From Asterionella formosa (lineage: Eukaryota): a stretch of DNA of 41,988 nucleotides. Position 1 is the first letter of the stretch, and each line of letters opens with the position of its first letter. Location of the stretch: the NCBI GenBank assembly GCA_002256025.1, contig NKIB01014626.1, forward strand, positions 1-41,988, read 5' to 3'. Positions 2,832 to 41,625 of the stretch are shown here, in pieces. The position numbers were made by a program, and so were the translations under genes. The notes under the pieces were generated by a model. That model searched no databases, was not told the DNA's origin, and saw only the letters and a program-made list of their open reading frames with translations.

Positions 2832-5560
2832 TTGCCACATCAAAATATCATCTCAGACAATGAAAAAATAGTTTGTGCTTCTCAAGATAGATGCATGGTG
2901 AAGAATCTACCAAGGTCAATTGCACATAACTGCCCTGGATGTGAAAATAGCATTCATGCTCTTTGCGGTCATGTTTGCATGAAGAAGCAGATGTTCAGTT
3001 CAAAACAACATGCTTCCATTGCTATGAAAAGTTTGGTTGCGCCCTGATAGATCCAGATGATGCAAATGCATTGCCAAAACTTCAACAAGATGAAGAGAGG
3101 AGACATGATTCCAATCAAGGACAAGTGTACTAGGACATAGTAGTACTTGTGCAGCATGCAAATATCATGGATAGCATTTTAGCACAAGAGATTGATGAAC
3201 AAGGCAGCACTATTAGAGGACATGATACTCAAAAAGCGAAGAAGGAAGAAAATAAAATGAAGCCATTATATCTCATGAATTTAGCAAACATCAAAGGGAA
3301 CACAAGAGCAAATGAAAAGTGAGCCGGCATCAGTCTGAACATGAAGTCTTTCTGTTATATATATAAACATGAGGTTCAGCAACTAAGACTGGAGATGCTA
3401 CCACAGATCAGTCATATCACTGCTGATATTGACAACATTCCCATTCATATAAAGAAAGCACAATCAGTGATATGCAGTTTTCTTGAAAGGGAAAGTCTCT
3501 TCATGATTGCATCAAATTGAATTTGAGGACTTGAAGCCTATTACTGACTTCACAGCATTTCTTGGCACCCTCAATAATCCAGTGACAGGCTGTCTACTTA
3601 CTCAGAAAATGAATAAAAACAAGAAGACATCACTTAACAACCTGTTTAAGAAGCATAAGATGAAGGCTCCAGATGACTTTAATGATGAGGTGAAAGATCT
3701 CATTGCCGGCATCAAATAAATTGCAAGTAATGCAAAACAAGGTGGGATGACCAGTCTTGAGGAGGGAAACTTGAATTGACAATCGACCTGTACCGAAAAA
3801 TAAACATATGATTTATTGAAGATGACTATCCATCAGCTGTTTTTGCATGTGCTTTTTAAGTCTAGCTTGGAATTTGATGTGCCGTGTTGATAGTACTGAT
3901 GGTTTGGAGTAAAGATGCTGTATAGATTCGATTTCCTCACACACCAAATGATCAAGATGGCTCTAAGAATTTCAAGCCCTCACACTGCTACACCAACCCT
4001 GAAGATTTTGTATTGTGCCCAATAACTGCATTTTTTTAGTACATAGCTAACGTTCTTCCCGGAAATTCTACAAGACAGCCAGATGGTCTATTATTTCCTG
4101 GTGTAGGGCAGGAGGATCGATTCAGAAAAGTTATCAAGAGGTTGCTACATGGACATGAAGGTGATCTATATTGATATGAGGTGGAGTATATTGGTACTCA
4201 CAACATCAGGAAGGGTGTAACAACATATGCATCAAGTGGCTTGCTCTACAGTAATTCCATCAAGTGTAGAAACAGCAATCGAGGTGGTTGGACATTAGTC
4301 GCTGTGCGAGATGTCTACATTCTTTATGAAACGGCAGGTGACCAATATGATGGTCGAATATTGGCTGTATTGCCAGTGCTATCTGCTCATTTTGCGGTTT
4401 CAGAACCAAATTTTTGGATTTGAAACCCCAATGATGCAAATGCACAAGTAAATCAAACAGACCTTGATGGATATTCTGGCTTTACTTTCCCTGTTTGGTG
4501 ATGTGATTCACCGGCAAGTTTTCGTTTTGCGGTTTCAGAACCAACCTTTTGGATTCGAAACCCAATGATGCAAATACACAAGTAAAGCAAACAGAACTTG
4601 ATTGACAAGTCATTCTGGCTTCACGTTCCCTTTTTGGTGATGTGATTCACCAGCAAGTTTTGGTGCTTCCATTTCTTTGTGTTGGACTAGCATGTATCCT
4701 GCTTCACAGAAAACATCAACAACTTTGTAATGACAAGTTGGCAGGTAGTAAGACTGCTATCTACACATCAAGGCAGTTTTTTGCACTTGATGAACATATT
4801 TTTGTTCGATATCTTTCATGCAAGGAAGAATAATCATTTGCTGTGAAGCTGACAGGTAAAACTCCTCATGTTGCCCATCTTACAGCCACCAGGAGTATGA
4901 GATGAGAACTCCAGAGTTTTGGAACATCACTGCTAATGGACATTTGGAGTAGTATTTTCGGAATCTCGAATGGATGAATTAATTCAGAAGGTTTTTGGGT
5001 CAAGTCTAGGGGGGATCAAGGACCAGTTTAATGGAATGACAAATGAAATTATGATAAACAATGAATAAAATGGTTCTGACAAGTTGATACATGCATCCAG
5101 GTATTCTTCGTTTGAGAAAGAATTGTTCTTGAATCCACACGATGAAATTTTACGGCATGTTCTGATTGTTTGGCAGTTCCCATTGTGCACAGTCGCATTT
5201 TCGAGATCAAGTGAAAAAGATAGGCCCACTAAAATACTCGGACAATCTGGCTGCATGTGTCTTTTGCAACCATAAGTGATATCAATAAGGTTATTTGGTG
5301 TGAATGTAAAAGAGGAATGCAGTATCTAGACGAATTAGAAATTTTGATGAAGAGGTTGGATGGAACTGCAAAGAGCCGTGGCTTCCTTCAACTGCCTTTG
5401 GCTTGAGAGAAGGTACTGATTGCATTGGAACAATACAAAGACTGCCTTGGAATCTCGCTATGGATGCCAAAGGGTAGAATCAGGCGGAGTCCTGGGATTT
5501 AATGGTCCACTGTCTTTAAACAACTGATGCCAAACAATTTATCATTTTCGGCAACCAAAG
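2832..5560 (+). mobile_element. Decayed Crypton-like (stramenopile CryptonS-type) tyrosine-recombinase transposon, pseudogenised; boundaries approximate
   Basis: Frameshifted and stop-broken fragments read LAWNLMCR, HCYTNP..CPI, GTHNIRKGV, RGGW..VRDVY..AGDQYDGRILA. These match the R...HxxR...W...Y tyrosine-recombinase pattern of oomycete/diatom Cryptons. An N-terminal Cys/His cluster (HNCPGCENSIHALCGH) is present. Confidence 0.8.
4390..4661 (+). repeat. Diverged tandem duplication of about 135 bp inside the Crypton relic (4390-4522 and 4525-4661)
   Basis: Both copies run ttttgcggtttcagaaccaa...aatgatgcaaat.cacaagtaaa...tttggtgatgtgattcacc.gcaagtttt. Confidence 0.9.
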
Positions 5561-6243
5561 AGGTTTAGCTTACCGAAATTGGTTTTTATAAGTAAATATA
5601 ACTAAATATACAGGTAGTCTATCAAAAAAGGATAATTCATGATCTATTACAATTTAATCAAATTCAGAAAATGCTGGTTCCTAGATTCAATATAAACATG
5701 ATAAAATGTAGGAAATAATGATTTTGAAACCAACTGCATCTAAGATGCCATTTACATCACTTTTTCGAATTTATTCCTAAAGAGACGTATTTATGCTATT
5801 TTTCTAAAATATTATGTTTTTTATATTATGTTACTTCTCTAGAATATTATGTTACTTTTTCGTTAATTTATTCGGGTTAATCGAAAATGTATTTCACTTC
5901 TCGAAAATTTATGTGATCACACCAATAATTATGTGTGTTTGCGACAATATATGTTGACCAGCTAGCCATTGCGACAGGATCAAAGCGAAATTATGCTTCT
6001 CAGCGGCAATTATATGCTGCTTTCACCATTTTTTAAAAGATAGAGTCGTCAATTCCGATTCACTAATTATGTTTTTGCTTCGACATATTTCCTCGATCTA
6101 AACTGGCATTTTTTGCACATACAAGAGGAAGATTCACACAGTAGAATTCAGCACACGTAGTAGTAGACACATTATAGCACATTGAATAGTCATTGTTGAT
6201 AGTATAATTTACAATAGCCAGCAAGATTAGAAATAAAGCATCG

Positions 6244-7400
6244 TTGAGCCTTGCATGGCGACATAATGAGTCGAAATTGAGATTTGACGCAATGGCCTTC
6301 TCCTTTTCGGATCGGCTAGATTACGTCTACATTGATAACTGTAGAAAGAACGATTTGGTAGTAGAAGCAAGGGTTAAGGAGCTGATGACCATCAAATTCA
6401 TTGAATTCATGATCTACTTTTTTTGCACTTTTTCGCACTTATTCTGAAACCAATCAACACACCCCAAAACTATTTGCTGACATCTGATTTGACCAATACA
6501 AATCCGTTCTAGCCACATCGACACATGAAAGATAGGAATTTATCTTGTTTACAAGGCAACAAAGAATCCTTTTCAATTTAGTTGCTGGATACAATTTAGT
6601 AGAGAATCTTAGCTTTGAGTTTTGGTAAATCCCAGCTAATGTACAAGTATCTATCATCATGGGGGAATGGCGTAGTGGTTAGCAAACCCACTGTGGTGGC
6701 GGGTTTGATTCCTGCATTCTCCACATGTCTTTTTCATGTAGTCCGTAGGGTTCCAGGGGGTGGCTGAAGAAAAGACAGGCCCCATTGTACTGTACCAATG
6801 AACAAAACCTGTATTACTTGTTTTGTGGGCACAAGTGTGATTATTGGATAGCTATTATGTAATTTAAATTTAATTTCAAATTTTTACTATCTTTCATCAT
6901 GACATACTAGCACATCCTATGGTAAATTGAAAATGAGAAGTGCCACAATGGCCATCTTCTTCTCAGACCAGCTATATAACATCTAAATTGATATCTTTAG
7001 CAAAAACAACCTGATGAAAGAAGAAAAGTATGAGAAGCCTTGTTTGATAACAATTATTGAACACATCAAGGAGGAGTTTTTAATTTTCCAACATTCTGCA
7101 GTCCACAAGCACCGCAAATTTTACACATCCTGATGCCTCCTTTGATCAAAATATGTTCTTTCTGAGCATATTGACATTCGACATGAAGGCATTGATCAAT
7201 TGTACTTTGAATACTATGCTAGATAGAAATCAGCCTTAAATTGGTGGAGAAAGATGGATTGGAAGTTTGGTTGGTACAGCACTGATGATCATTGCACAGC
7301 AAGCACGAAAATTTTTACACATCCTGATGACCAATTTGATCAATATACTTTTTTTGTTGTGCAATTGACTCTAATTACTCACCTTGCTACTACATTCCTG
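6244..7400 (+). pseudogene. Decayed, internally repeated coding relic of unknown family, interrupted by the SINE-like insertion
   Basis: AMAFSFSDRLDYVYIDNCRKNDL (about 6290) resembles TMAIFFSDQLYNI*IDIFSKNNL (about 6945). HPDASFDQ (about 7127) resembles HPDDQFDQ (about 7320). Stops and frameshifts occur throughout. Confidence 0.4.
6662..6887 (+). mobile_element. Full-length tRNA-derived SINE-like element with a tRNA-Ala-like head (6662-6723)
   Basis: Acceptor stem GGGGAAT/ATTCTCC+A with a G3:U70 pair; A box TGGCGTAGTGG (6668-6678); B-box-like GGTTTGATTCC (6702-6712); T stem GCGGG/CCTGC; anticodon arm shortened; AT-rich tail. Flanking direct repeats are TATCTATCATCATG (6648-6661) and TATCTTTCATCATG (6888-6901). 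Two further copies of the body occur in the window. Confidence 0.8.
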
Positions 7401-7528
7401 GACCTTCTTTCAGTGCAATTCAGTCACCATAGTTTACATTGGGGGTCTAGGACACTGAAGTATATGGCAGACATGGACAAGTTTGTGACCTGTAATAATT
7501 TATATATAATGCATATTTCTTTTGAGAT

Positions 7529-9583
7529 TCAAACACCTGAAACTTTAAAAGATGAAAGGGTATTATCCTGAAGAGAACGCAAAAAGCATTCAAGTGTCAA
7601 GTTTTCCATTTTTTTATTTTGGAGGTAGTAGTGTGCTCTTTTTAATTGCTTCATCAGAACAGCTGGGTCTTGATTGATTTCATGTTCAAGATCTGCTTTG
7701 TTGTCAAAGAACATGGGATAGTCTTCACCAAGATACTCAATTGTTGATGGCAGTCTTTTCACGTATGCAGGAATAGTTAGAGCCATTATTTCCAGTATTG
7801 CATTATTTGCTGTGGCCCCCCAAAGGTCTAAAATGACAATGTTGTGCTTTAGCAAATTATCATAATCTGTAAAGTTCGAAGTGTAAAGTATCTTCACAGA
7901 GGGATCTTGTTTTGTTGAATTATCTTTTTTCAACTCAAAATGTAGTTTTCTTCTCATCTTCTTTAACTCAACAGTGCCTTTCGGTGTCCCTGGTAGCCAA
8001 AACTTCTGTCGGGTGGTCTTTAAACTGTGTATTGTGGCTAATCGCCTATACTGTTGTCCGAGCAAGATAACTCCTGAGCTTGATGATTCAATCAAAATGT
8101 CAAGATCTTGCAAAGTGAATTTTTCAGCATTGCTTTCCACTGTAATTGGATGTCGAACTGTGTAAACCGCAACTTTCTCAAACCCAATAGAATTCAGATT
8201 TTTTGTCAAGGATGTTCGGACATCATCAGACAGAACAAACAAAGCGAGGCAGTGCTCAAGACTTGCCAGAAAGTTACTGTTTCTTAATGTACTCTCTAGA
8301 CGTAATGATGTACGAATGTGTACGGGGAGATTCAAAGCGAGATGCATGATACCAACCCATGGCATTCTTATTGTCTCTTTCTTGTCCCATTCAAAATATT
8401 TCTCTGTAAAATCTAGAAAAAAAATGTCGGTCAGGTTACTGCCTTTTCGATCAATATCGATCTTTTCAGAATTCGAAACCACAAGATTGAAATCAATCAA
8501 ATACTGTATTACGCGTCCCCATCCACCTCGATGTGTCACCGTTTTAAAATAACTGTCATCTGCCAAATGAAATTTCATGGCGTTACTTTCCTTTAGCGTC
8601 TTGACAAAATTAGGATTCCAAAAGTCACAGAGCATATAGTTCTTGGGACGGTTAGCGGTGACTTCAACAAGAAATGCACGTGCTTCGTCTTCATTAGTGG
8701 CTGTGGTCGAGTCGATAATAAACTTCCAGGGCTGTGATGACGCTGGGGTTTCATTATATGACCGAGCGCAATCACCACCATTTTCACACTGCCCATCATG
8801 AAATGCCTCAAACTCGTCAATAACACCAACAGTTACATTGCACTTTCCTGAAAGAACAAGATCGTAACCCCAACCTAGTCTGTTGTCTTCTGTTATCAAG
8901 CTTAGCCAGCAAAGCCAAGTGGGTATTGTGAAAACGGAAAACAGAATCTCGGAATAATCAGATCGATGACTACTGCAGACACTTCGACTTTGCATTACAG
9001 GATAGTGCCACTGAGGAAAGGAAGCGGAGGCCATACCATATCCGGAAATGCGCATCAGATTCAAAAATTTGGTTAAGTGAACGTTTCTGACATCAATATC
9101 ATCAATTAAAATTGCAACGTGTGTCAAACGACCAAAGTTTATTTTGGGGTGATCACTGGTTATTAATTTCATATGATCAGTCCACATTCCAGAATTATAC
9201 TGGACATGGCAAAATTGGAGTTCTTCTTTAAACTGCTTCATCGCCGAAGCATTCCAAACAATAACCAAGCAATCGGCAGAAGAAGTTTGCCGAAGCTGTA
9301 GGAGTGAAGCTTTCAGGTTCGTGAGTCTGCTCGTGTCACCGATACCGGGAACGACTACCAGCACGGAGGAATCAAGCGTGGTAACGTCATTACTTTGCAG
9401 TTTCAAATGATTTAGTGGTTCAAAAAAAAAGGTTTTACTTTCGTCCTCTGAGGAAAATTCAATGTTGATTAAGAAAAGCTGACCGAGCAAAATGACAAGC
9501 GCGAAACAAGAAAAAAAGTGCTGCCACTTTCTCAAATTTCTGAAGCGTCTCCGAATCAGCTTTAACCTAGTTTCTCGACTCAT
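7529..9583 (-). CDS. 684-aa type II membrane protein, putative two-domain glycosyltransferase
   Basis: Intronless ORF with a basic N-tail and one hydrophobic helix. The N-terminal GT-A/DUF707-like region has ILIDDIDV and GWGYDL. The C-terminal region has HRGGW, PWVGIMH and ANNAILE..LPSTIEYLGEDYPMFF (GT-B-like). Confidence 0.75.
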   Translation of the reverse strand: MSRETRLKLIRRRFRNLRKWQHFFSCFALVILLGQLFLINIEFSSEDESKTFFFEPLNHLKLQSNDVTTLDSSVLVVVPGIGDTSRLTNLKASLLQLRQTSSADCLVIVWNASAMKQFKEELQFCHVQYNSGMWTDHMKLITSDHPKINFGRLTHVAILIDDIDVRNVHLTKFLNLMRISGYGMASASFPQWHYPVMQSRSVCSSHRSDYSEILFSVFTIPTWLCWLSLITEDNRLGWGYDLVLSGKCNVTVGVIDEFEAFHDGQCENGGDCARSYNETPASSQPWKFIIDSTTATNEDEARAFLVEVTANRPKNYMLCDFWNPNFVKTLKESNAMKFHLADDSYFKTVTHRGGWGRVIQYLIDFNLVVSNSEKIDIDRKGSNLTDIFFLDFTEKYFEWDKKETIRMPWVGIMHLALNLPVHIRTSLRLESTLRNSNFLASLEHCLALFVLSDDVRTSLTKNLNSIGFEKVAVYTVRHPITVESNAEKFTLQDLDILIESSSSGVILLGQQYRRLATIHSLKTTRQKFWLPGTPKGTVELKKMRRKLHFELKKDNSTKQDPSVKILYTSNFTDYDNLLKHNIVILDLWGATANNAILEIMALTIPAYVKRLPSTIEYLGEDYPMFFDNKADLEHEINQDPAVLMKQLKRAHYYLQNKKMENLTLECFLRSLQDNTLSSFKVSGV

Positions 9584-13012: not shown

Positions 13013-14900
13013 GAATGGGAGTCTTCAATGTTTCCCATTGAAGAAGAAGCTAAAATGTGGTGGAAGTCGGGGATGTGATGGTCACAGTGCTGGCTGATTC
13101 TGTGACATCACCTTTCTTAGTAGTGCTTCACCTTAAAATTAGATAAAAAGTTTCTCTAATTATTACTATTTTTGATTCACCTGTAAAAGTACTATGGCTA
13201 GGAGCATAGTTTCATTGACGGTTGCTTGGGTTTTAAATGCTGACACCTGAGATGTCATCTGACTAGGGTGATGAGTTGCGACTGGTCACTTCATATCCAA
13301 TGAATTTGTCCATTCTGAGATTTAATTTCAAAAATTTTCATCCATTGATGCAATTTGTTTGTGCGACTCTTGTTAAAGATTTTCTAGTACATGTTTCTGG
13401 TCCGCTGTCTCCTTTTATCGTTAGTTGAATGGTGACTTCCTTACCTGCCATGAACTCAAACGAGTTGACATTCTGTTTCCTGCGGTTTGTTTCATTGGAG
13501 TTTTTGCCTTGTTCGTGACCTCCTAGTATTTCTGGAGGCCGTTTACCACTTTTTTCCATTGGTGTTTTCTTGAACCTTGTCAACAGTGCGTTCACTTGAT
13601 TTTTCTTCTTCCTTTGTTTGAGCTCCTCCAAAAATGGGAACCTGTTTCATCGAATAGTCTTTGTGGGAGGTGCCGCCCCTTGAAACTCCTGTAGGATCAA
13701 ATCATTGAATTCGCTTTGATCGTTGGAGTGCTAGCACTTCTTGTGACTTGGGGTAAATTATGATTGGGATACCCATGGAGGTATAGTCTGAATCGGAAAG
13801 AATACATTATTTGCACAAAGAAAGAGTCTGAAAATTAACAAACCGTCAGTCAGGGGAATTCATGACTTTGCTCACAATTCGAATTTTCTAGTCACGTACT
13901 AAAGAACATGCAGTTTATTGTTACATTTCCATATGTATGTCTATATTTAACTTCGAGATGACCTGCTCAAGATTCCAAAGATATATGAAACTATGACAAT
14001 TAGTATGTACATGATAGTCAGCAGTACAAAATTATCCCTTGAGGTACTTTCTTACATTTTGAGATGTTGCTCCCTCCCCGAGATTTCTATTGCTCAAGTT
14101 ATCTCGTTAATTTGAACATTAGATAAAAAATAATCATCTAGTAAAAATTATTAAGCTAGCCACTGCGGACTCAACGATCTCTCGCTTTTGTTCGCTCGTA
14201 TCCTCAAAAATGAGAACACGATGGCGAAAACAAATTCTAGCGGCAATTTCAAATTTTTGTTAAGGATATTGGCGTAAAAAATCTATTATTGAGCGATTAC
14301 CTCGTCTATGTTAGGCTAGATACGCACACGAACGAAATAGCAATAGTTCATGCATTGTCAATCTTCTAAGAGATATTCAGTCCAACAATTTCGTCATGGT
14401 CAAGACGGAGTTGCTGTCTCATCATCCCCCTACTACAGCTTTATAAATCAAATTTACTTATGTAGCTATGTGAAACATATATAATATTTCGGTATAAATA
14501 TTAGTATAATTTGAGCTGGAACCACCGGTAGTCCTATGTATAGATATGAAACCATGCATACCGCCAGTAGTACCAATACTGCTACCTGGTACCTGGCTGG
14601 TACCTGGTACTCTAGCTACTAAACTACCGGTACTGACCATATAGCTGTACAGAAGATTTTCACATACCGTAGTATGATTGTAAGAACAACATGCATTTGT
14701 CGAGGATTTTGTAACAAGCATAGTACTGTACCTGGTACCGGGTAACAGCACTACGATTTTTGATGATTGCTGCTGTAACTAGCTAGTACTATAATAGTGT
14801 TTTTTAAACTCGCCTTAATACTTAGCTAAAAGTATACTCCTGTCATATATATTACGTGATGCATCTTTTTTTGATGTAATGTCATACCCTTAAATACAGG

Positions 14901-14996
14901 CAAATAAACCAGTACTATTGTGTCCATCTATTTGGTGGGCCCGAATGCAATTATTGGATAGTTTTTTTGTGCTATAAAATTTAATTGACTTATTTT
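14901..14996 (+). mobile_element. 3' fragment of the SINE-like family
   Basis: caaataaaccagtactattgtgtccatcta..tttggtgggcccgaatgcaattattggatag..aaaatttaattgac aligns with the reverse complement of 34120-34232 and with the 3' part of 6662-6887. Confidence 0.72.
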
Positions 14997-15950
14997 CAAT
15001 GGATGTAGTTTCAGTCAACTTGATCCGTCATAAAAAAGAGGATTATGTTTTAAGTTTGCACAGCACTCTTACTTACATATTATGAATCAAAAATTCATGA
15101 TCCTGCAGGGGGGGGGGGAATCTCTGCAACCACCGCCAGAACCACAACCATTTTACCATCCAGCATAGACTTCTAGCTCCAGATCAGCGTTGACTGAATC
15201 AAATTTGCTCTGGTAGTCGCCTCGATGTTGTTGGGCTTGCTGTACTATGCTTCCACAGCAACAATATTTTGCTTCTGCCTGATGCAGAGATTTTTTTTGG
15301 TCGTCATGCTGATGATTCCGCAGAAAATGATTTGGTTGGCTAACCTCAATTTCTGTCACGATCGAAGTCGTAGAACCTACACAAATTATTAGATCGCAGA
15401 ATAAGGTACAAAATTGTACACTCCGCCCAGAAATTACTCTTGAAGTCATCACGAATTCGGGCGCGCCAGCGCTCCAAAAATTGAGATTCAATTGATCCTA
15501 TGTACAAACCGATTGAACCTACATAAAACAATTTATCTTTTAATGTTGCTTTTTATGTTTTCGACTACATATTGAGAAAATGAAAGTGAGGTTGGTTAAT
15601 TATTTTTTTTGATGATCAAAAAGCGAAGGTACAATATCTTGCACTCCTCTCTAAGTAAAATCAGTCGTGGCTGTATAAATTGTGGATGTACGAGACACCA
15701 GGTTTTACGGTATGTTGTACTGTTAGTACCGGTATCTGGTACTGGTAGTTCGAATTGGTCGCCGGCCTTTCAGTCGAATCCTCATTCTTGTTTCTGCGCG
15801 CATATCATCCTCAGGTCAACAAATTTACTACCGGTACGGGTACCGGTACTAGCTGAATCCTGTTCTGTGGTAACAACAAAAACGAGAACTGTCACAGAAC
15901 AGAGGTTACCATATTTTGTATTTTTGAAGTGATTGCGGACAGCTATTATC

Positions 15951-19594: not shown

Positions 19595-20470
19595 TTAAGC
19601 TATCTTGCTAACTTGCTTCTTGTTACATCTTTTACGAAATCCGTCATAATGATCAACAAGTAGTTGAACTCTATTCCACCATTGACTTTGTTTACCCCCA
19701 GCCACTGTTTCATTCAAGAAGTTGCGGTGTGAAGTAACATGCGATTCCATGCAGTCACCTTGCACAGTATGCGCAATATGCTGTGTGTCAGAACTTTCAA
19801 AGTCAAGGTAACCATCGCTTTCTAATAGAATGTTATGGAGCATACAGCATGACGTGAACGCATTTTCGATATGCTCAGGTCGAGACAAGTTGTTCCTGTT
19901 CTTAAGAAATGACCATTGAATTTTCAACATACCAAAAGTACATTCAATATCTTTTCGAACTGACTCCACCATCATACCCCATGCCCTTTCTTTTCCATGT
20001 TCATTGCTGTATTTAATTGGACAAATCAACACTGGCCATCGTAGGTACCCTCCATCATAAATGAAATAGTAGCCTTTACAAGTAATAGAAGACTCAACAG
20101 TGAGCACATTCCACTCCTGCCTGTCAAGAAACGAATTTCTACTATCGTGTAGATTGGAAACAGCAGCATCAAACTTGACTATGTGTTTGTCATTTCTTGT
20201 TCCTGGGTGTAGGTAGCTGATTGATAAAATCTTTCTTCTGTGATCAGAAACCACCTCAAAAACAACTGAAGGATACCCCTTGGAACCTTTAAATATATTC
20301 TTCTGGTAGGCAGGACATCGATTCCATCCAATGTGCACACAATCGACTGAGCCTATACAACCTGGAAGCCCAATGGAACTGTAATCATTTGGAATTCGTT
20401 GCAGTTGGTCATCATCTTCCTCTTCCTCTCTCAGTATGTATACATATGCATCCATCTTTTCTGTAATCAC
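19595..20470 (-). mobile_element. PIF/Harbinger (HARBI1-like DDE) transposase, N-terminally truncated
   Basis: Motifs GLPGCIGSVDCVH (D1), GTRNDK, YDGGY (D2), SVRKDIECTFGMLK (E) and CCMLHNILL. The N-terminal HTH region is not recognisable upstream of about 20500. Confidence 0.9.
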
Positions 20471-20843
20471 AAGAAATGCCCCGAAACTATGTATGATTTT
20501 GACACCAGGACTAAGTGTGACGGGTACGCATCCGAGTCGGCTGGCGACGCCCTCCTTTGGTTAATAAAGCGCGATGTTGAGTACTGACATGTCCGCCGGG
20601 CCAGGCAATGCTGGCGCGTGACAGGAAGTCTATGGGCAGAATACATACATACTGGTTAAGTATTTATAACATGTAAAGAGAACAATGTTCGTCGCACAAA
20701 ATCCAAATTGACTCCCTCGACCAGTGGAAAGATGTCACCTACGTACACAAATGTACCTGTACTCATAGCTCCCCTCGCTCCGCCGAATGTGTCCATATGA
20801 TAGTGTCTGGTTTCTGAAGAAAACCCATGTATCAGTCAGAACC

Positions 20844-33784: not shown

Positions 33785-34119
33785 GTTTGGTAAATGCTGT
33801 TCGCTTTTGTCGCGAAATGGTTTTAAAAATCAATCCGTTTTGCAATCATCAGGTCGGATACGGTCATGTCATACAATAAGTTAGTACAACTAATGTACTA
33901 TGTACTTACTGTCTGGTATACCGGTAAGTAACCAAGTTCCCTTTGCTGCAATACATTCATATTATATATTTTAGCTATCTAGTAATTAAAAACCCGGTAT
34001 TTATCAAAAGCCAGAGCACGACATGAAAATTAAATATGGCGCGAAGTGATAATGCAATTTGTGCCGTGACCTCTACTAACGGGTGCCCTTTGCTATTAGG
34101 TGCATATAATAAGCATGAT

Positions 34120-34317
34120 AAAATGTCAATGAAATTTTAAAGTACATTAAAGCTATCCAATAATTGCACTCAGGCCCACCAAAAATAGAACAATATAGGT
34201 AGATGGTCACAATTAGTATCGGTTTTTTTGGTCCGTAAGGTACAATGGGACCTGTCTTTTCGTCAGCCGCACTCCCTGGAACCATAGGGACTACAAGAAA
34301 AAGACAGGTTGAGAATG
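34120..34317 (-). mobile_element. 5'-truncated copy of the SINE-like family
   Basis: The reverse complement cattctcaacctgtctttttcttgtagtccctatggttccagggagtgcggctgacgaaaagacaggtcccattgtac...gtgggcctgagtgcaattattggatagct aligns with 6715-6885. Confidence 0.85.
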
Positions 34318-35094
34318 ATAGAGGAATTACGACAGTGATGTTATCAGCAGATTTGACACTAAAAATTTCACAGTAGCTGTACAACAACTACAAAAATGAC
34401 TAAAACAATGAAATGATTAATTAAAGCAATGGATGTCAAACAAGTTATTTATTAGCTTGAATATGATTGCTTGTATTGACACCGTAAAAACCCATCATGA
34501 TCTTCACATCGAAATTTGAAATGGGTCCAATATTGCCCATCATTAAAATATATTTTGTGTATTTCCTATGTTCGCATTTTGGCATTACAATTTGTGCCAA
34601 TTGCCCCTTGGTTTTCCAGCCCTCGGATTCTTGCCGAAATCGGCAAGGGGTCTACTTGAGGAAACCATTTTATTTAGTCTACAGATTTTGATAATTTATA
34701 TCTAGAGTTCACCTCGTTTTTGTTCGTCTCCTGACAAGTGGACTCCGGCAATTCACCTTTCACCATGCCGATCATTGTCCATCATGCCCAGTCTGAAGTG
34801 AAATTAGTTCAGTGATCGTTGTCGAACGGATGCGGTTTGTGGTTGGATAGCTTGTCTTCTTGTGGGATTCATGTTAGTCACATCGTCCATATTTCGTTGG
34901 ACGAACAATGATATTGGTGCGTATCTGATGTTGGTGGCAAGTTTTTCCTCCGGTCATGCTACATATGTACGTGGTACTAAAAACAACCATGCATGGATTA
35001 AGCTAAACTTTAACGCTTACATATGACACAATAAAATATTATCGCTGTAGACTCGGTATTATCTTTACGAGACCAAAATGTTAAAATATATCGT

Positions 35095-36961: not shown

Positions 36962-37243
36962 ACAGGCGGAGTGACTTGTTGGCTACTAAATTACGTGATA
37001 TAATAATATACCCCGTAGCACGATGCATAATACAGTTGCTTCCCAATCATCTCATCATGATTGATAAGATGATACTGCGATATCATGATAGGGTTACATC
37101 GATGCATACATCACCAAAGTATGATACGTAATATTGAGTAAAGGACATCACATAGCTAGGATACATTGATCATAAAACTATGATGATTTTATAAAATGTT
37201 TATGATATAATTTTGATCAAAATATGATCATGTTAAAATAATT

Positions 37244-37549
37244 CAATGACAATAAAAGACGATAAAATATGTACGCAAGTGTTACCAAGACATCATAGAA
37301 AATAAATAAATAAATCATAATTATGTTACTTAATATAGACATTCGCTTTTTAATGTATACAGTTAAAGTCAACAGTTAATATGATAGTATTATACAGCGG
37401 ATAGGATCTAAGTATACGGATGCGTTGATATGAACATCACTATAATATGATTTGTGATATGGATTGATGCATATCACATACCGGTATCCTCAACAACCAG
37501 CCATCACGTTCATTGTCGTGTCGTCTTTCCTTGTTTTAGCTATATATAT
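37244..37549 (+). repeat. Direct repeat of about 305 bp, copy 1
   Basis: Matches 41315-41625. The last 201 bp (37349-37549 vs 41425-41625) differ at two positions by eye. Both copies end in (TA)n. Confidence 0.95.
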
Positions 37550-41310: not shown

Positions 41311-41314
41311 AATA

Positions 41315-41625
41315 CAATGACAATAAAATACGATAAAATATGTACGCAAGTGTTATCGATACATCACAGAATATAAATCAAGCAATCATACATAAAGTAT
41401 GTTAATTAATATATGTGTTTGTCGTTTAATGTATACAGTTAAAGTCAACAGTTAATATGATAGTATTATACAGTGGATAGGATCTAAGTATACGGATGCG
41501 TTGATATGTACATCACTATAATATGATTTGTGATATGGATTGATGCATATCACATACCGGTATCCTCAACAACCAGCCATCACGTTCATTGTCGTGTCGT
41601 CTTTCCTTGTTTTAGCTATATATAT
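41315..41625 (+). repeat. Direct repeat of about 305 bp, copy 2
   Basis: See copy 1; the offset of the near-identical part is 4076 bp. Confidence 0.95.

Follow-up and report, generated by a model that had tools for sequence, protein, structure and literature searches.

The window analysed here is a stretch of 41,988 nucleotides (nt) of Asterionella formosa (contig NKIB01014626.1 of assembly GCA_002256025.1, forward strand). At position 6662 on the plus strand it carries a repeated unit, labelled W1, in which a tRNA-like head is followed by a body of ~150-160 nt that ends in a run of T; the whole unit measures ~225-250 nt in its family. We consider it very probable that W1 is one copy of a family of non-autonomous retroposons of the short interspersed element (SINE) type with a tRNA-derived head. 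This degree of confidence covers the SINE-type retroposon reading only, and the steps assigned below to RNA polymerase III (Pol III) and to a long interspersed element (LINE) are ones that we infer. The parts of W1 and the two copies of its target-site duplication (TSD) are the following:

6648-6661 (+): 5' copy of the TSD, TATCTATCATCATG, abutting G1 of the head; it may reach upstream to TAC at 6642-6644.
6662-6723 (+): tRNA-like head with acceptor stem, A box, a mini-hairpin in place of the anticodon arm, T arm with the B box, and discriminator A at 6723.
6724-6734 (+): short trailer and run of five T (T5, 6730-6734), laid out like the 3' trailer of a tRNA gene and a Pol III terminator.
6724-6823 (+): 5' and central body, kept in copy W2 and in the metagenome loci L002-L005 (introduced below), with an imperfect hairpin inside.
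6824-6880 (+): conserved 3' domain, GTGGGCAC ... ATTATTGGATAGC ... AT-rich, a candidate recognition region for the reverse transcriptase of a partner element.
6881-6887 (+): T run at the end of the element (6881-6885), then AC as last bases, which are uncertain; a poly(A) tail is absent.
6888-6901 (+): 3' copy of the TSD, TATCTTTCATCATG, identical to 6648-6661 at 13 of 14 positions.

Two further copies lie in the same window, W2 at 34 kb on the minus strand and W3 at 14.9 kb on the plus strand:

34119-34347 (-): W2, with complete body and 3' domain and a 19-nt internal insertion; nhmmer E 2e-57, this copy being part of the profile.
14895-14991 (+): W3, the last ~100 nt of the element (3' domain and T run); nhmmer E 5.7e-15, independent of the profile.

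Public sequencing runs and host affinity

Parts of the region 5200-8600 were present in 24 public runs, the best of which is labelled 'algae metagenome' and the remainder of which are mostly freshwater or lake metagenomes; the RNA runs X13, X17, X18, X22 and X23 hold small shares of the window region. Four runs from four studies (X1, X2, X3 and X6) were used for the analysis of the locus, and contigs that aligned to 6450-7100 at a likeness of at least 80% were collected (2426 in X1, 381 in X2, 254 in X3, and 288 in X6).

The first-pass annotation, which had been made from the letters of the window, had taken the genome to be diatom-like. In a tree of the mitochondrial phosphate carrier, comprising 31 of the 120 listed matches (the named ones and the top unnamed ones) and no ochrophyte class other than the diatoms, the protein of the window fell into a clade of seven rows (support 100/99) with Phaeodactylum and Amphora, separate from the oomycetes and outside the Phaeodactylum/Amphora subgroup. 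Its identity to the named diatoms among the matches listed was 76%. The three protein searches made for the window yielded mostly environmental proteins. The tree thus places the window with two diatoms against the oomycetes, although, with this one gene and this sampling, it does not separate diatoms from other ochrophytes. The host can be described as a freshwater alga of the stramenopiles, with diatoms as its closest named kin in this tree.

Copies of the element in the window and in metagenomes

A profile of 235 positions was built from W1, W2 and four metagenome copies, with W3 left out. In the window it matched 6662-6886 (+), 34347-34119 (-) and 14895-14991 (+), and no other match was better than E 1.7. 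A repeat search of the window recovered both further copies (direct family D3 and inverted families I1-I3), in agreement with the first-pass annotation, which had reported that the body recurs at these two places. That annotation had also described both copies as having lost the 5' end while keeping the 3' end. This holds for W3, in which the match begins at profile position 134 of 235 and therefore marks a clean 5' truncation. It is less certain for W2, where nothing of the head can be recognised before the T loop (~34327) and the sequence upstream of this point may be a decayed head instead of a truncation point. No TSD was detected around W2, for which 983 of 1000 shuffles did equally well, and none that is convincing around W3 (182 of 1000 shuffles). 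A run of about a dozen G is found at 15105-15120, ~110 nt past W3.

Using a 23-mer that spans the T arm and acceptor of the head, five loci (L001-L005) were found in a metagenome collection, while the same 23-mer gave no match in prokaryote genomes or in viral contigs. Three of these loci, L002, L003 and L004, are full length (241-250 nt) and share head, trailer, body, 3' domain and terminal T run with W1, and their flanks are unrelated. L004 has a gapped repeat of ~12 nt that abuts the head (22 of 1000 shuffles as good), and L003 has none. L005 is the locus of L002 in another sample (L002:33-666 and L005:184-532), with 92% identity in both element and flank. L005 has lost the SINE's 3' part together with ~300 bp of flank, a deletion within an old insertion that is common to related genomes or paralogues. 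Apart from this same-locus pair, which stands at 91% in the pairwise comparison, identity between copies of the main family is 71-86%, a divergence that fits the earlier description of the family as old.

The fifth locus, L001, comes from a marine assembly (561-800). Its head is 91% identical to that of W1 over 75 nt, but its body of ~190 nt is different, and neither the window nor any of the other four loci contains a match to it. It is flanked by a direct repeat of 8 nt (6 of 1000 shuffles as good). From its sequence, L001 resembles a further family that uses this head, seen in a single instance. Across copies the TSD varies in length, from 14-17 bp in W1 to ~12 in L004 and ~8 in L001, and it scored better than the shuffles in three of the six copies tested (W1, L001 and L004).

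The abundance of the family was assessed by comparing summed contig depth within the element to that of the unique flank. Such a sum does not give the number of copies, and, as all four runs come from metagenomes or mixed samples, other organisms may contribute to it. The depths were as follows:

X1: unique flank ~1,032; 6714-6735 depth 1,282,743, ratio ~1240; 3' domain (6824-6845) ratio 112.
X2: unique flank ~160; 6714-6735 depth 123,831, ratio ~760; 3' domain (6824-6845) ratio 58.
X3: unique flank ~30; 6714-6735 depth 23,943, ratio ~790; 3' domain (6824-6845) ratio 81.
X6: unique flank ~5.3; 6714-6735 depth 4,791, ratio ~900; 3' domain (6824-6845) ratio 70.

Contig depth was highest at 6692-6757. 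The falls at 6758-6823 and at 6670-6691 coincide with indels and variants that are private to W1 and clip short contigs, and were not read as biology. That four independent runs give like ratios argues for one organism as the source of both the repeats and the unique flank. The depth suggests a family of hundreds to about a thousand copies, and the excess of ~760-1240 times the flank at the junction of head and body in all four runs agrees with the earlier proposal of a probably abundant family.

Target-site duplication and insertion of W1

The first-pass annotation had pointed to direct repeats bracketing the unit at 13 of 14 identical positions, and these proved to be well beyond chance, as their score was reached by 4 of 2000 ungapped and by none of 1000 gapped shuffles. 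Sites without the element were found in paralogous copies of the surrounding DNA. In a contig of X2, position 6625 is joined to 6894 with 30 diverged letters between; in a contig of X6, 6644 is joined to 6907 with 23 letters between; and contigs of X3 that start at 6885 carry the upstream flank directly in front. At each of these paralogous sites one copy of the target is present and the element is absent. W1 is therefore a true insertion that entered an already existing repeat and duplicated a long stretch of target. The trinucleotide TAC at 6885-6887, which equals 6642-6644, may itself belong to the duplicated target, which suggests a TSD of 14-17 bp and a 3' end of the element at 6884-6887.

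As a check, the first-pass annotation had proposed a search for empty-site alleles in related strains. The sites without the element in X2, X3 and X6 are paralogous ones. At the orthologous site the element is present in X1, X2 and X3, each of which has contigs that span a junction with 0-10 differences, and no empty allele of it was seen in these three runs.

The DNA around W1 is itself repeated, with 6582-6625 and 6890-6977 at ~20-90 times the unique depth. The regions of this surrounding repeat are 6450-6498, 6582-6647 and 6888-6977, as well as 7106-7161/7300-7355. Its paralogues differ by swapped segments, with joints from 6498 to 6574, 6577 or 6586, and loose ends after 6957 continue with sequence like that of the window at 7120-7150, which is itself duplicated at 7300-7355.

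The tRNA-like head

The acceptor stem of the head comprises 7 bp, formed by GGGGAAT (6662-6668) and ATTCTCC (6716-6722) and including the pair G3:T70, and the discriminator A follows at 6723. The internal promoter of tRNA genes has the consensus TRGCNNAGTGG in its A box and GGTTCGANNCC in its B box. The A box of W1, TGGCGTAGTGG at 6668-6678, fits the former, and the B-box-like motif, GGTTTGATTCC at 6702-6712, fits the latter at 10 of 11 positions; with C, the family majority letter at 6706 according to contig variants, the B box matches fully. The combined A and B pattern has one match in the 41,988 nt of the window, and none of 100 shuffles contained any match. The B box alone is not significant and carries no weight by itself, since its pattern was met in 26 of 100 shuffles. 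The earlier description of a tRNA-like head with acceptor stem, A box, B-box-like motif and discriminator A is borne out.

The first-pass annotation had further suggested that the head be examined with Infernal. In E-value mode, a model of the tRNA clan (tRNA-Sec) aligned to 6661-6723 from end to end, but the score was only 20.5 bits (E 0.11), below gathering, and at Rfam gathering scores no match was obtained in the window. ARAGORN called no tRNA gene in the window or in L001-L005. These weak or missing calls on W1 indicate that the head is not a working tRNA gene, and a functional tRNA gene can be ruled out, as there is no complete cloverleaf with a 7-nt anticodon loop, no ARAGORN call, and an anticodon segment reduced from 13 to 5 nt. 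The heads of L002 and L003 scored 30.0 bits (E 0.002) and 28.3 bits (E 0.006), respectively, with RF00005, for which the gathering score is 29. Both cover model positions 1-71, with 5 nt where the anticodon arm of the model has 13, so the shortened anticodon arm noted earlier is real. In the heads this arm is replaced by a mini-hairpin of 4 bp with a loop of 4 or 6 nt, and the head measures 62-64 nt.

The pair G3:U70 and A73 are identity elements of tRNA-Ala. Both are present in W1, L001, L002 and L003; L004 is without G1 but has kept the pair. Since the anticodon arm is replaced by the mini-hairpin, an Ala anticodon (NGC) cannot be read. Annotated phage tRNAs match only 34 nt of the 3' half of the head and are of mixed identity (Ala in three phages; Cys, Asp and Asn in one each), and no match to the head was found in the E. 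coli genomes searched. Of the tRNA-Ala origin that had been put forward, the identity pair and A73 are thus in place, whereas the anticodon and the phage matches give no decision, and a tRNA-Ala ancestry of the head is possible on the strength of these nucleotides. The family majority differs from W1 at 6725 and at 6745, with C at both positions. The change from A to C at 6725, found in at least 124 contigs of X1, places CC after the discriminator A. This resembles the start of CCA, and the head may descend from a reverse-transcribed mature tRNA, but chance (1 in 16) is an equally likely cause.

In contigs that are clipped at 6691-6696, the upstream continuation is another D-arm sequence that is nevertheless tRNA-like (agreement 0.5-0.69), which indicates that most copies carry a variant head. 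Contig matches that start exactly at 6662 numbered 15 in X1, 19 in X2 and 14 in X6, and the letters upstream of this position agree only at 0.41-0.43. As unrelated DNA precedes 6662, the 5' boundary of the family is G1 of the head.

Body, 3' domain and T runs

The 3' domain is common to all three copies in the window and to L002-L004, and all six copies that keep their 3' end finish in a run of four to eight T (T4-T8). The arms of the internal hairpin (6726-6733 and 6770-6777) form an inverted repeat that is complementary at 8 of 8 positions, with a compensatory change in one pair of columns. The fold of the whole element is no better than that of shuffles (z-score -0.12), and in the consensus fold only 2 of 39 pairs show a compensatory change; accordingly, we make no claim of a selected RNA structure. 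A scan for bacterial promoters and terminators, which is not relevant to a eukaryote, showed nothing.

A run of five or more T stands 6-7 nt behind the head in five of six copies (W1, W2, L002, L003 and L005), and L004 has three T at this place. In many eukaryotes, such a run directly behind the head would stop Pol III before it reaches the body. A full-length RNA would then need read-through or another polymerase, a point to which we return below.

Proposed mechanism and alternative explanations

The element is a dispersed short repeat with a tRNA-derived 5' end, inserted in the case of W1 into an older repeat, whose copies have common ends, long TSDs of variable length, and losses at the 5' end with the 3' end kept; terminal inverted repeats are absent, and so is any pairing in the manner of long terminal repeats (LTRs). 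These are the marks of target-primed reverse transcription by the enzyme of a LINE. In the mechanism that we propose, Pol III would start at the head through the internal A/B promoter predicted from its sequence. Some transcripts would pass the internal T5 and end at the terminal T run, which would act as the Pol III terminator. As poly(A) is lacking, the putative site that would be recognised by the reverse transcriptase/endonuclease of a partner LINE is the conserved 3' domain, and this enzyme would copy the RNA into staggered nicks, giving rise to the long and variable target duplications and to the 5' truncations.

Several observations weigh against this reading. The partner LINE was not found: no reverse-transcriptase domain was present in the 77 of 104 open reading frames (ORFs, stop-to-stop, at least 80 amino acids) that were scanned, the remaining 27 of which overlap longer ORFs in other frames, and a search for the LINE partner with the pattern of the 3' domain gave no match in viral contigs and none in prokaryote genomes. 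The mobilisation by a LINE that the first-pass annotation had proposed is in keeping with the long TSD of W1 and the clean 5' truncation of W3, but neither partner nor reverse transcriptase was seen in the window. The head of W1 is weak by tRNA models (20.5 bits), and ARAGORN recognised none of the heads. No TSD was detectable in three of the six copies tested (W2, W3 and L003). As L005 is the same locus as L002 and not an independent insertion, there are fewer independent insertions than loci. Contig depth is not copy number, and other organisms may contribute to it. Finally, the T5 behind the head, judged by its sequence, argues against simple full-length transcription by Pol III.

It is on this last point that a more far-reaching version of the Pol III mechanism turns, namely that this is a Pol III SINE superfamily, the first in the diatom/ochrophyte lineage to be defined by its structure, in which one arm-deleted head with its own T5 is combined with at least two unrelated bodies in about a thousand copies, with occurrences in freshwater as well as marine samples, and in which the terminator ends most transcripts as a tRNA-like RNA of ~70 nt while rare read-through supplies the template for retroposition. 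We regard this version as unlikely. If the terminator does act in this way, its strength would set the rate of amplification.

The T5 also underlies the strongest alternative, according to which W1 belongs to a non-autonomous element that was retroposed without being a Pol III unit. The head would be a captured tRNA pseudogene with its trailer and T5, and the templates would come from RNA polymerase II, by read-through from the host or from a LINE-type promoter, as in non-autonomous derivatives of LINEs. Besides the T5 directly behind the head in five of six copies, the Ectocarpus element RTEX-N1 can be cited in its favour, which in the passages of its description that deal with structure is abundant and non-autonomous, its 3' end being LINE-like and a Pol III head not having been identified (PMC12477816). 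Three observations speak against it. The 5' boundary coincides with G1 in many copies, as expected if transcripts start from a Pol III promoter inside the unit; both boxes, A and B, were kept while the anticodon arm was lost; and the same head stands before an unrelated body in L001, which fits a head that was retained as a promoter. On balance we consider this explanation improbable.

The other three alternatives are far less probable still. That W1 represents a single LTR left on its own, or a piece of a miniature LTR retrotransposon with tRNA-like sequence, would be in line with the existence of such elements (TRIMp3, Helenus type), which in the part of the source devoted to them are described as scattering tRNA-like sequences (PMC10886601). 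It is nevertheless very hard to reconcile with a TSD of 14-17 bp in W1 as opposed to the 4-5 bp given there for Helenus (PMC10886601), with nearest other copies that lie 8 kb and 27 kb away, are truncated or inverted and show no LTR-type pairing, and with metagenome copies that are single units in unrelated flanks. The first-pass annotation had stated that copies embedded in a larger DNA transposon or LTR element would speak against a SINE, and such an embedding was not seen, the copies being single units with unrelated flanks.

An origin as a miniature inverted-repeat transposable element, or another DNA-transposon derivative that happens to contain a tRNA-like stretch, could appeal to the PIF/Harbinger-type transposase ORF in the same window (19598-20560), which indicates that DNA transposons are active in the genome. 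We judge it highly improbable, as terminal inverted repeats are lacking (all three inverted pairs within 6655-6895 are internal), the TSDs are long and differ in length between copies, and W3 has lost only its 5' end. It is equally remote that the unit is not mobile and that a tRNA pseudogene was multiplied with neighbouring DNA by segmental duplication: W1 does sit inside a repeat at 20-90 times the unique depth, but the copies share sharp ends in unrelated flanks, paralogues of the surrounding repeat without the element keep a single target copy, and hundreds of variants exist, with 2426 contigs in X1.

Relation to known elements and significance

The SINE-type retroposon with a tRNA-like head that we favour can be compared with several known systems. 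In the passages of Vassetzky and Kramerov (2013) that define membership in SINEBase, a SINE is shorter than 1 kb and interspersed, has at least 100 copies, and has 60% identity to a tRNA species over 60 nt (PMC3531059). With ~225-250 nt and three dispersed copies in the window, the family has the size and interspersion so described. It is like the tRNA-derived SINEs of these passages in its modules of head, body and tail, in a tRNA-related head with A and B boxes, in its length below 1 kb, its interspersion and a copy number that is probably at least 100, and in its long TSDs and 5'-truncated copies. It is unlike them in that its tail is a short T run and not poly(A) or a simple repeat, in the T5 behind the head, and in the deletion of the anticodon arm (PMC3531059).

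Among the stramenopiles, SINE families of Phytophthora infestans were reported by Whisson et al. (2005), as cited in a passage of PMC3429519. Their host likewise is a stramenopile but is non-photosynthetic, and the comparison is one by description only (PMC3429519). The relevant passages on diatoms are brief. They give 13 'putative SINE' copies amounting to 1,454 bp for Phaeodactylum tricornutum (PMC5859163). For Cyclotella cryptica, SINEs are present in no annotation but version 2, and the roles that they play in diatoms are called poorly understood (PMC7466962). A further passage states that SINEs were reported in only two other diatoms and cites a 'putative SINE' of Skeletonema costatum (PMC8147415). 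These calls may come from the same or a neighbouring lineage. As far as the main-text descriptions go, they are automated, without a description of head, body, tail or TSD, and low in copy number in P. tricornutum, and by these descriptions they are set apart from our family, which may still be identical with one of them (PMC5859163, PMC7466962, PMC8147415). The family of A. formosa differs from such calls in that its structure is defined and its depth ratio amounts to several hundred or more.

In the passages on the brown alga Ectocarpus, RTEX-N1_Ec32 is described as an abundant non-autonomous element of ~600 bp with an RTE-X-like 3' end and no identified head (PMC12477816). It resembles the family of W1 as an abundant, short, non-autonomous retroposon of an ochrophyte alga, but it has a LINE-like 3' end, whereas the family of W1 has a clear tRNA-like 5' head (PMC12477816). 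Helenus (TRIMp3), as outlined in the part of the paper that treats it, has two LTRs with a primer-binding site and a polypurine tract between them and duplications of 4-5 bp (PMC10886601). The likeness lies in a tRNA-like Pol III promoter module within a short non-autonomous retroelement; the LTR pairs, primer-binding site, polypurine tract and 4-5-bp duplications are features of Helenus of which none is found in the family of W1 (PMC10886601).

According to introductory passages, SINEs were once believed to be lacking in unicellular eukaryotes (PMC7466962, PMC5859163). What is known of them in diatoms amounts to a few automated calls of a 'putative SINE'. Searches of an open-access library of papers, as distinct from repeat catalogues (Dfam, Repbase, SINEBase) and the supplements of diatom genomes, yielded no account of the structure of any tRNA-derived SINE from diatoms or other ochrophyte algae. 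Taken together, our results confirm a genuine and abundant tRNA-derived SINE-type family in a host group where such families have barely been described. Only two points are unusual: a T5 follows the head, and the head is used again with a second body; otherwise this is a known kind of element.

The family would provide a proper repeat-annotation model for this lineage and would explain tRNA-like false positives in such genomes. Its insertions could serve as markers for work on strains and populations of a bloom-forming freshwater alga, and its presence would imply that an active LINE partner is still to be found. With its T5 next to the head, the family also offers a simple test of how Pol III termination limits the spread of a SINE.

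Other features of the window

The only transposon protein found in the 77 scanned ORFs is the PIF/Harbinger-type transposase at 19598-20560 on the minus strand (Plant_tran, E 4.2e-27; DDE_Tnp_4, E 4.4e-17). Two direct repeats of ~310 nt, at 37240-37549 and 41311-41625, are 88-90% identical, lie 4.07 kb apart and have the shape of LTRs; for the ORFs that they enclose, no match to Pfam was obtained at E 1e-5. W1 is adjoined by an ORF of 684 amino acids (7532-9583, minus strand) that belongs to no Pfam family and whose homologues at 82-86% identity are all environmental proteins. The 82% homologue lies nearest to glycosyltransferase clusters in the Atlas (score 0.93), which may be taken as a lead only. 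The window also encodes an ORF with a TLC domain; Atlas searches with this ORF and with the 82% homologue gave no informative taxon. Two tandem units of ~135 nt that are 83-90% identical are located at 4387-4675.

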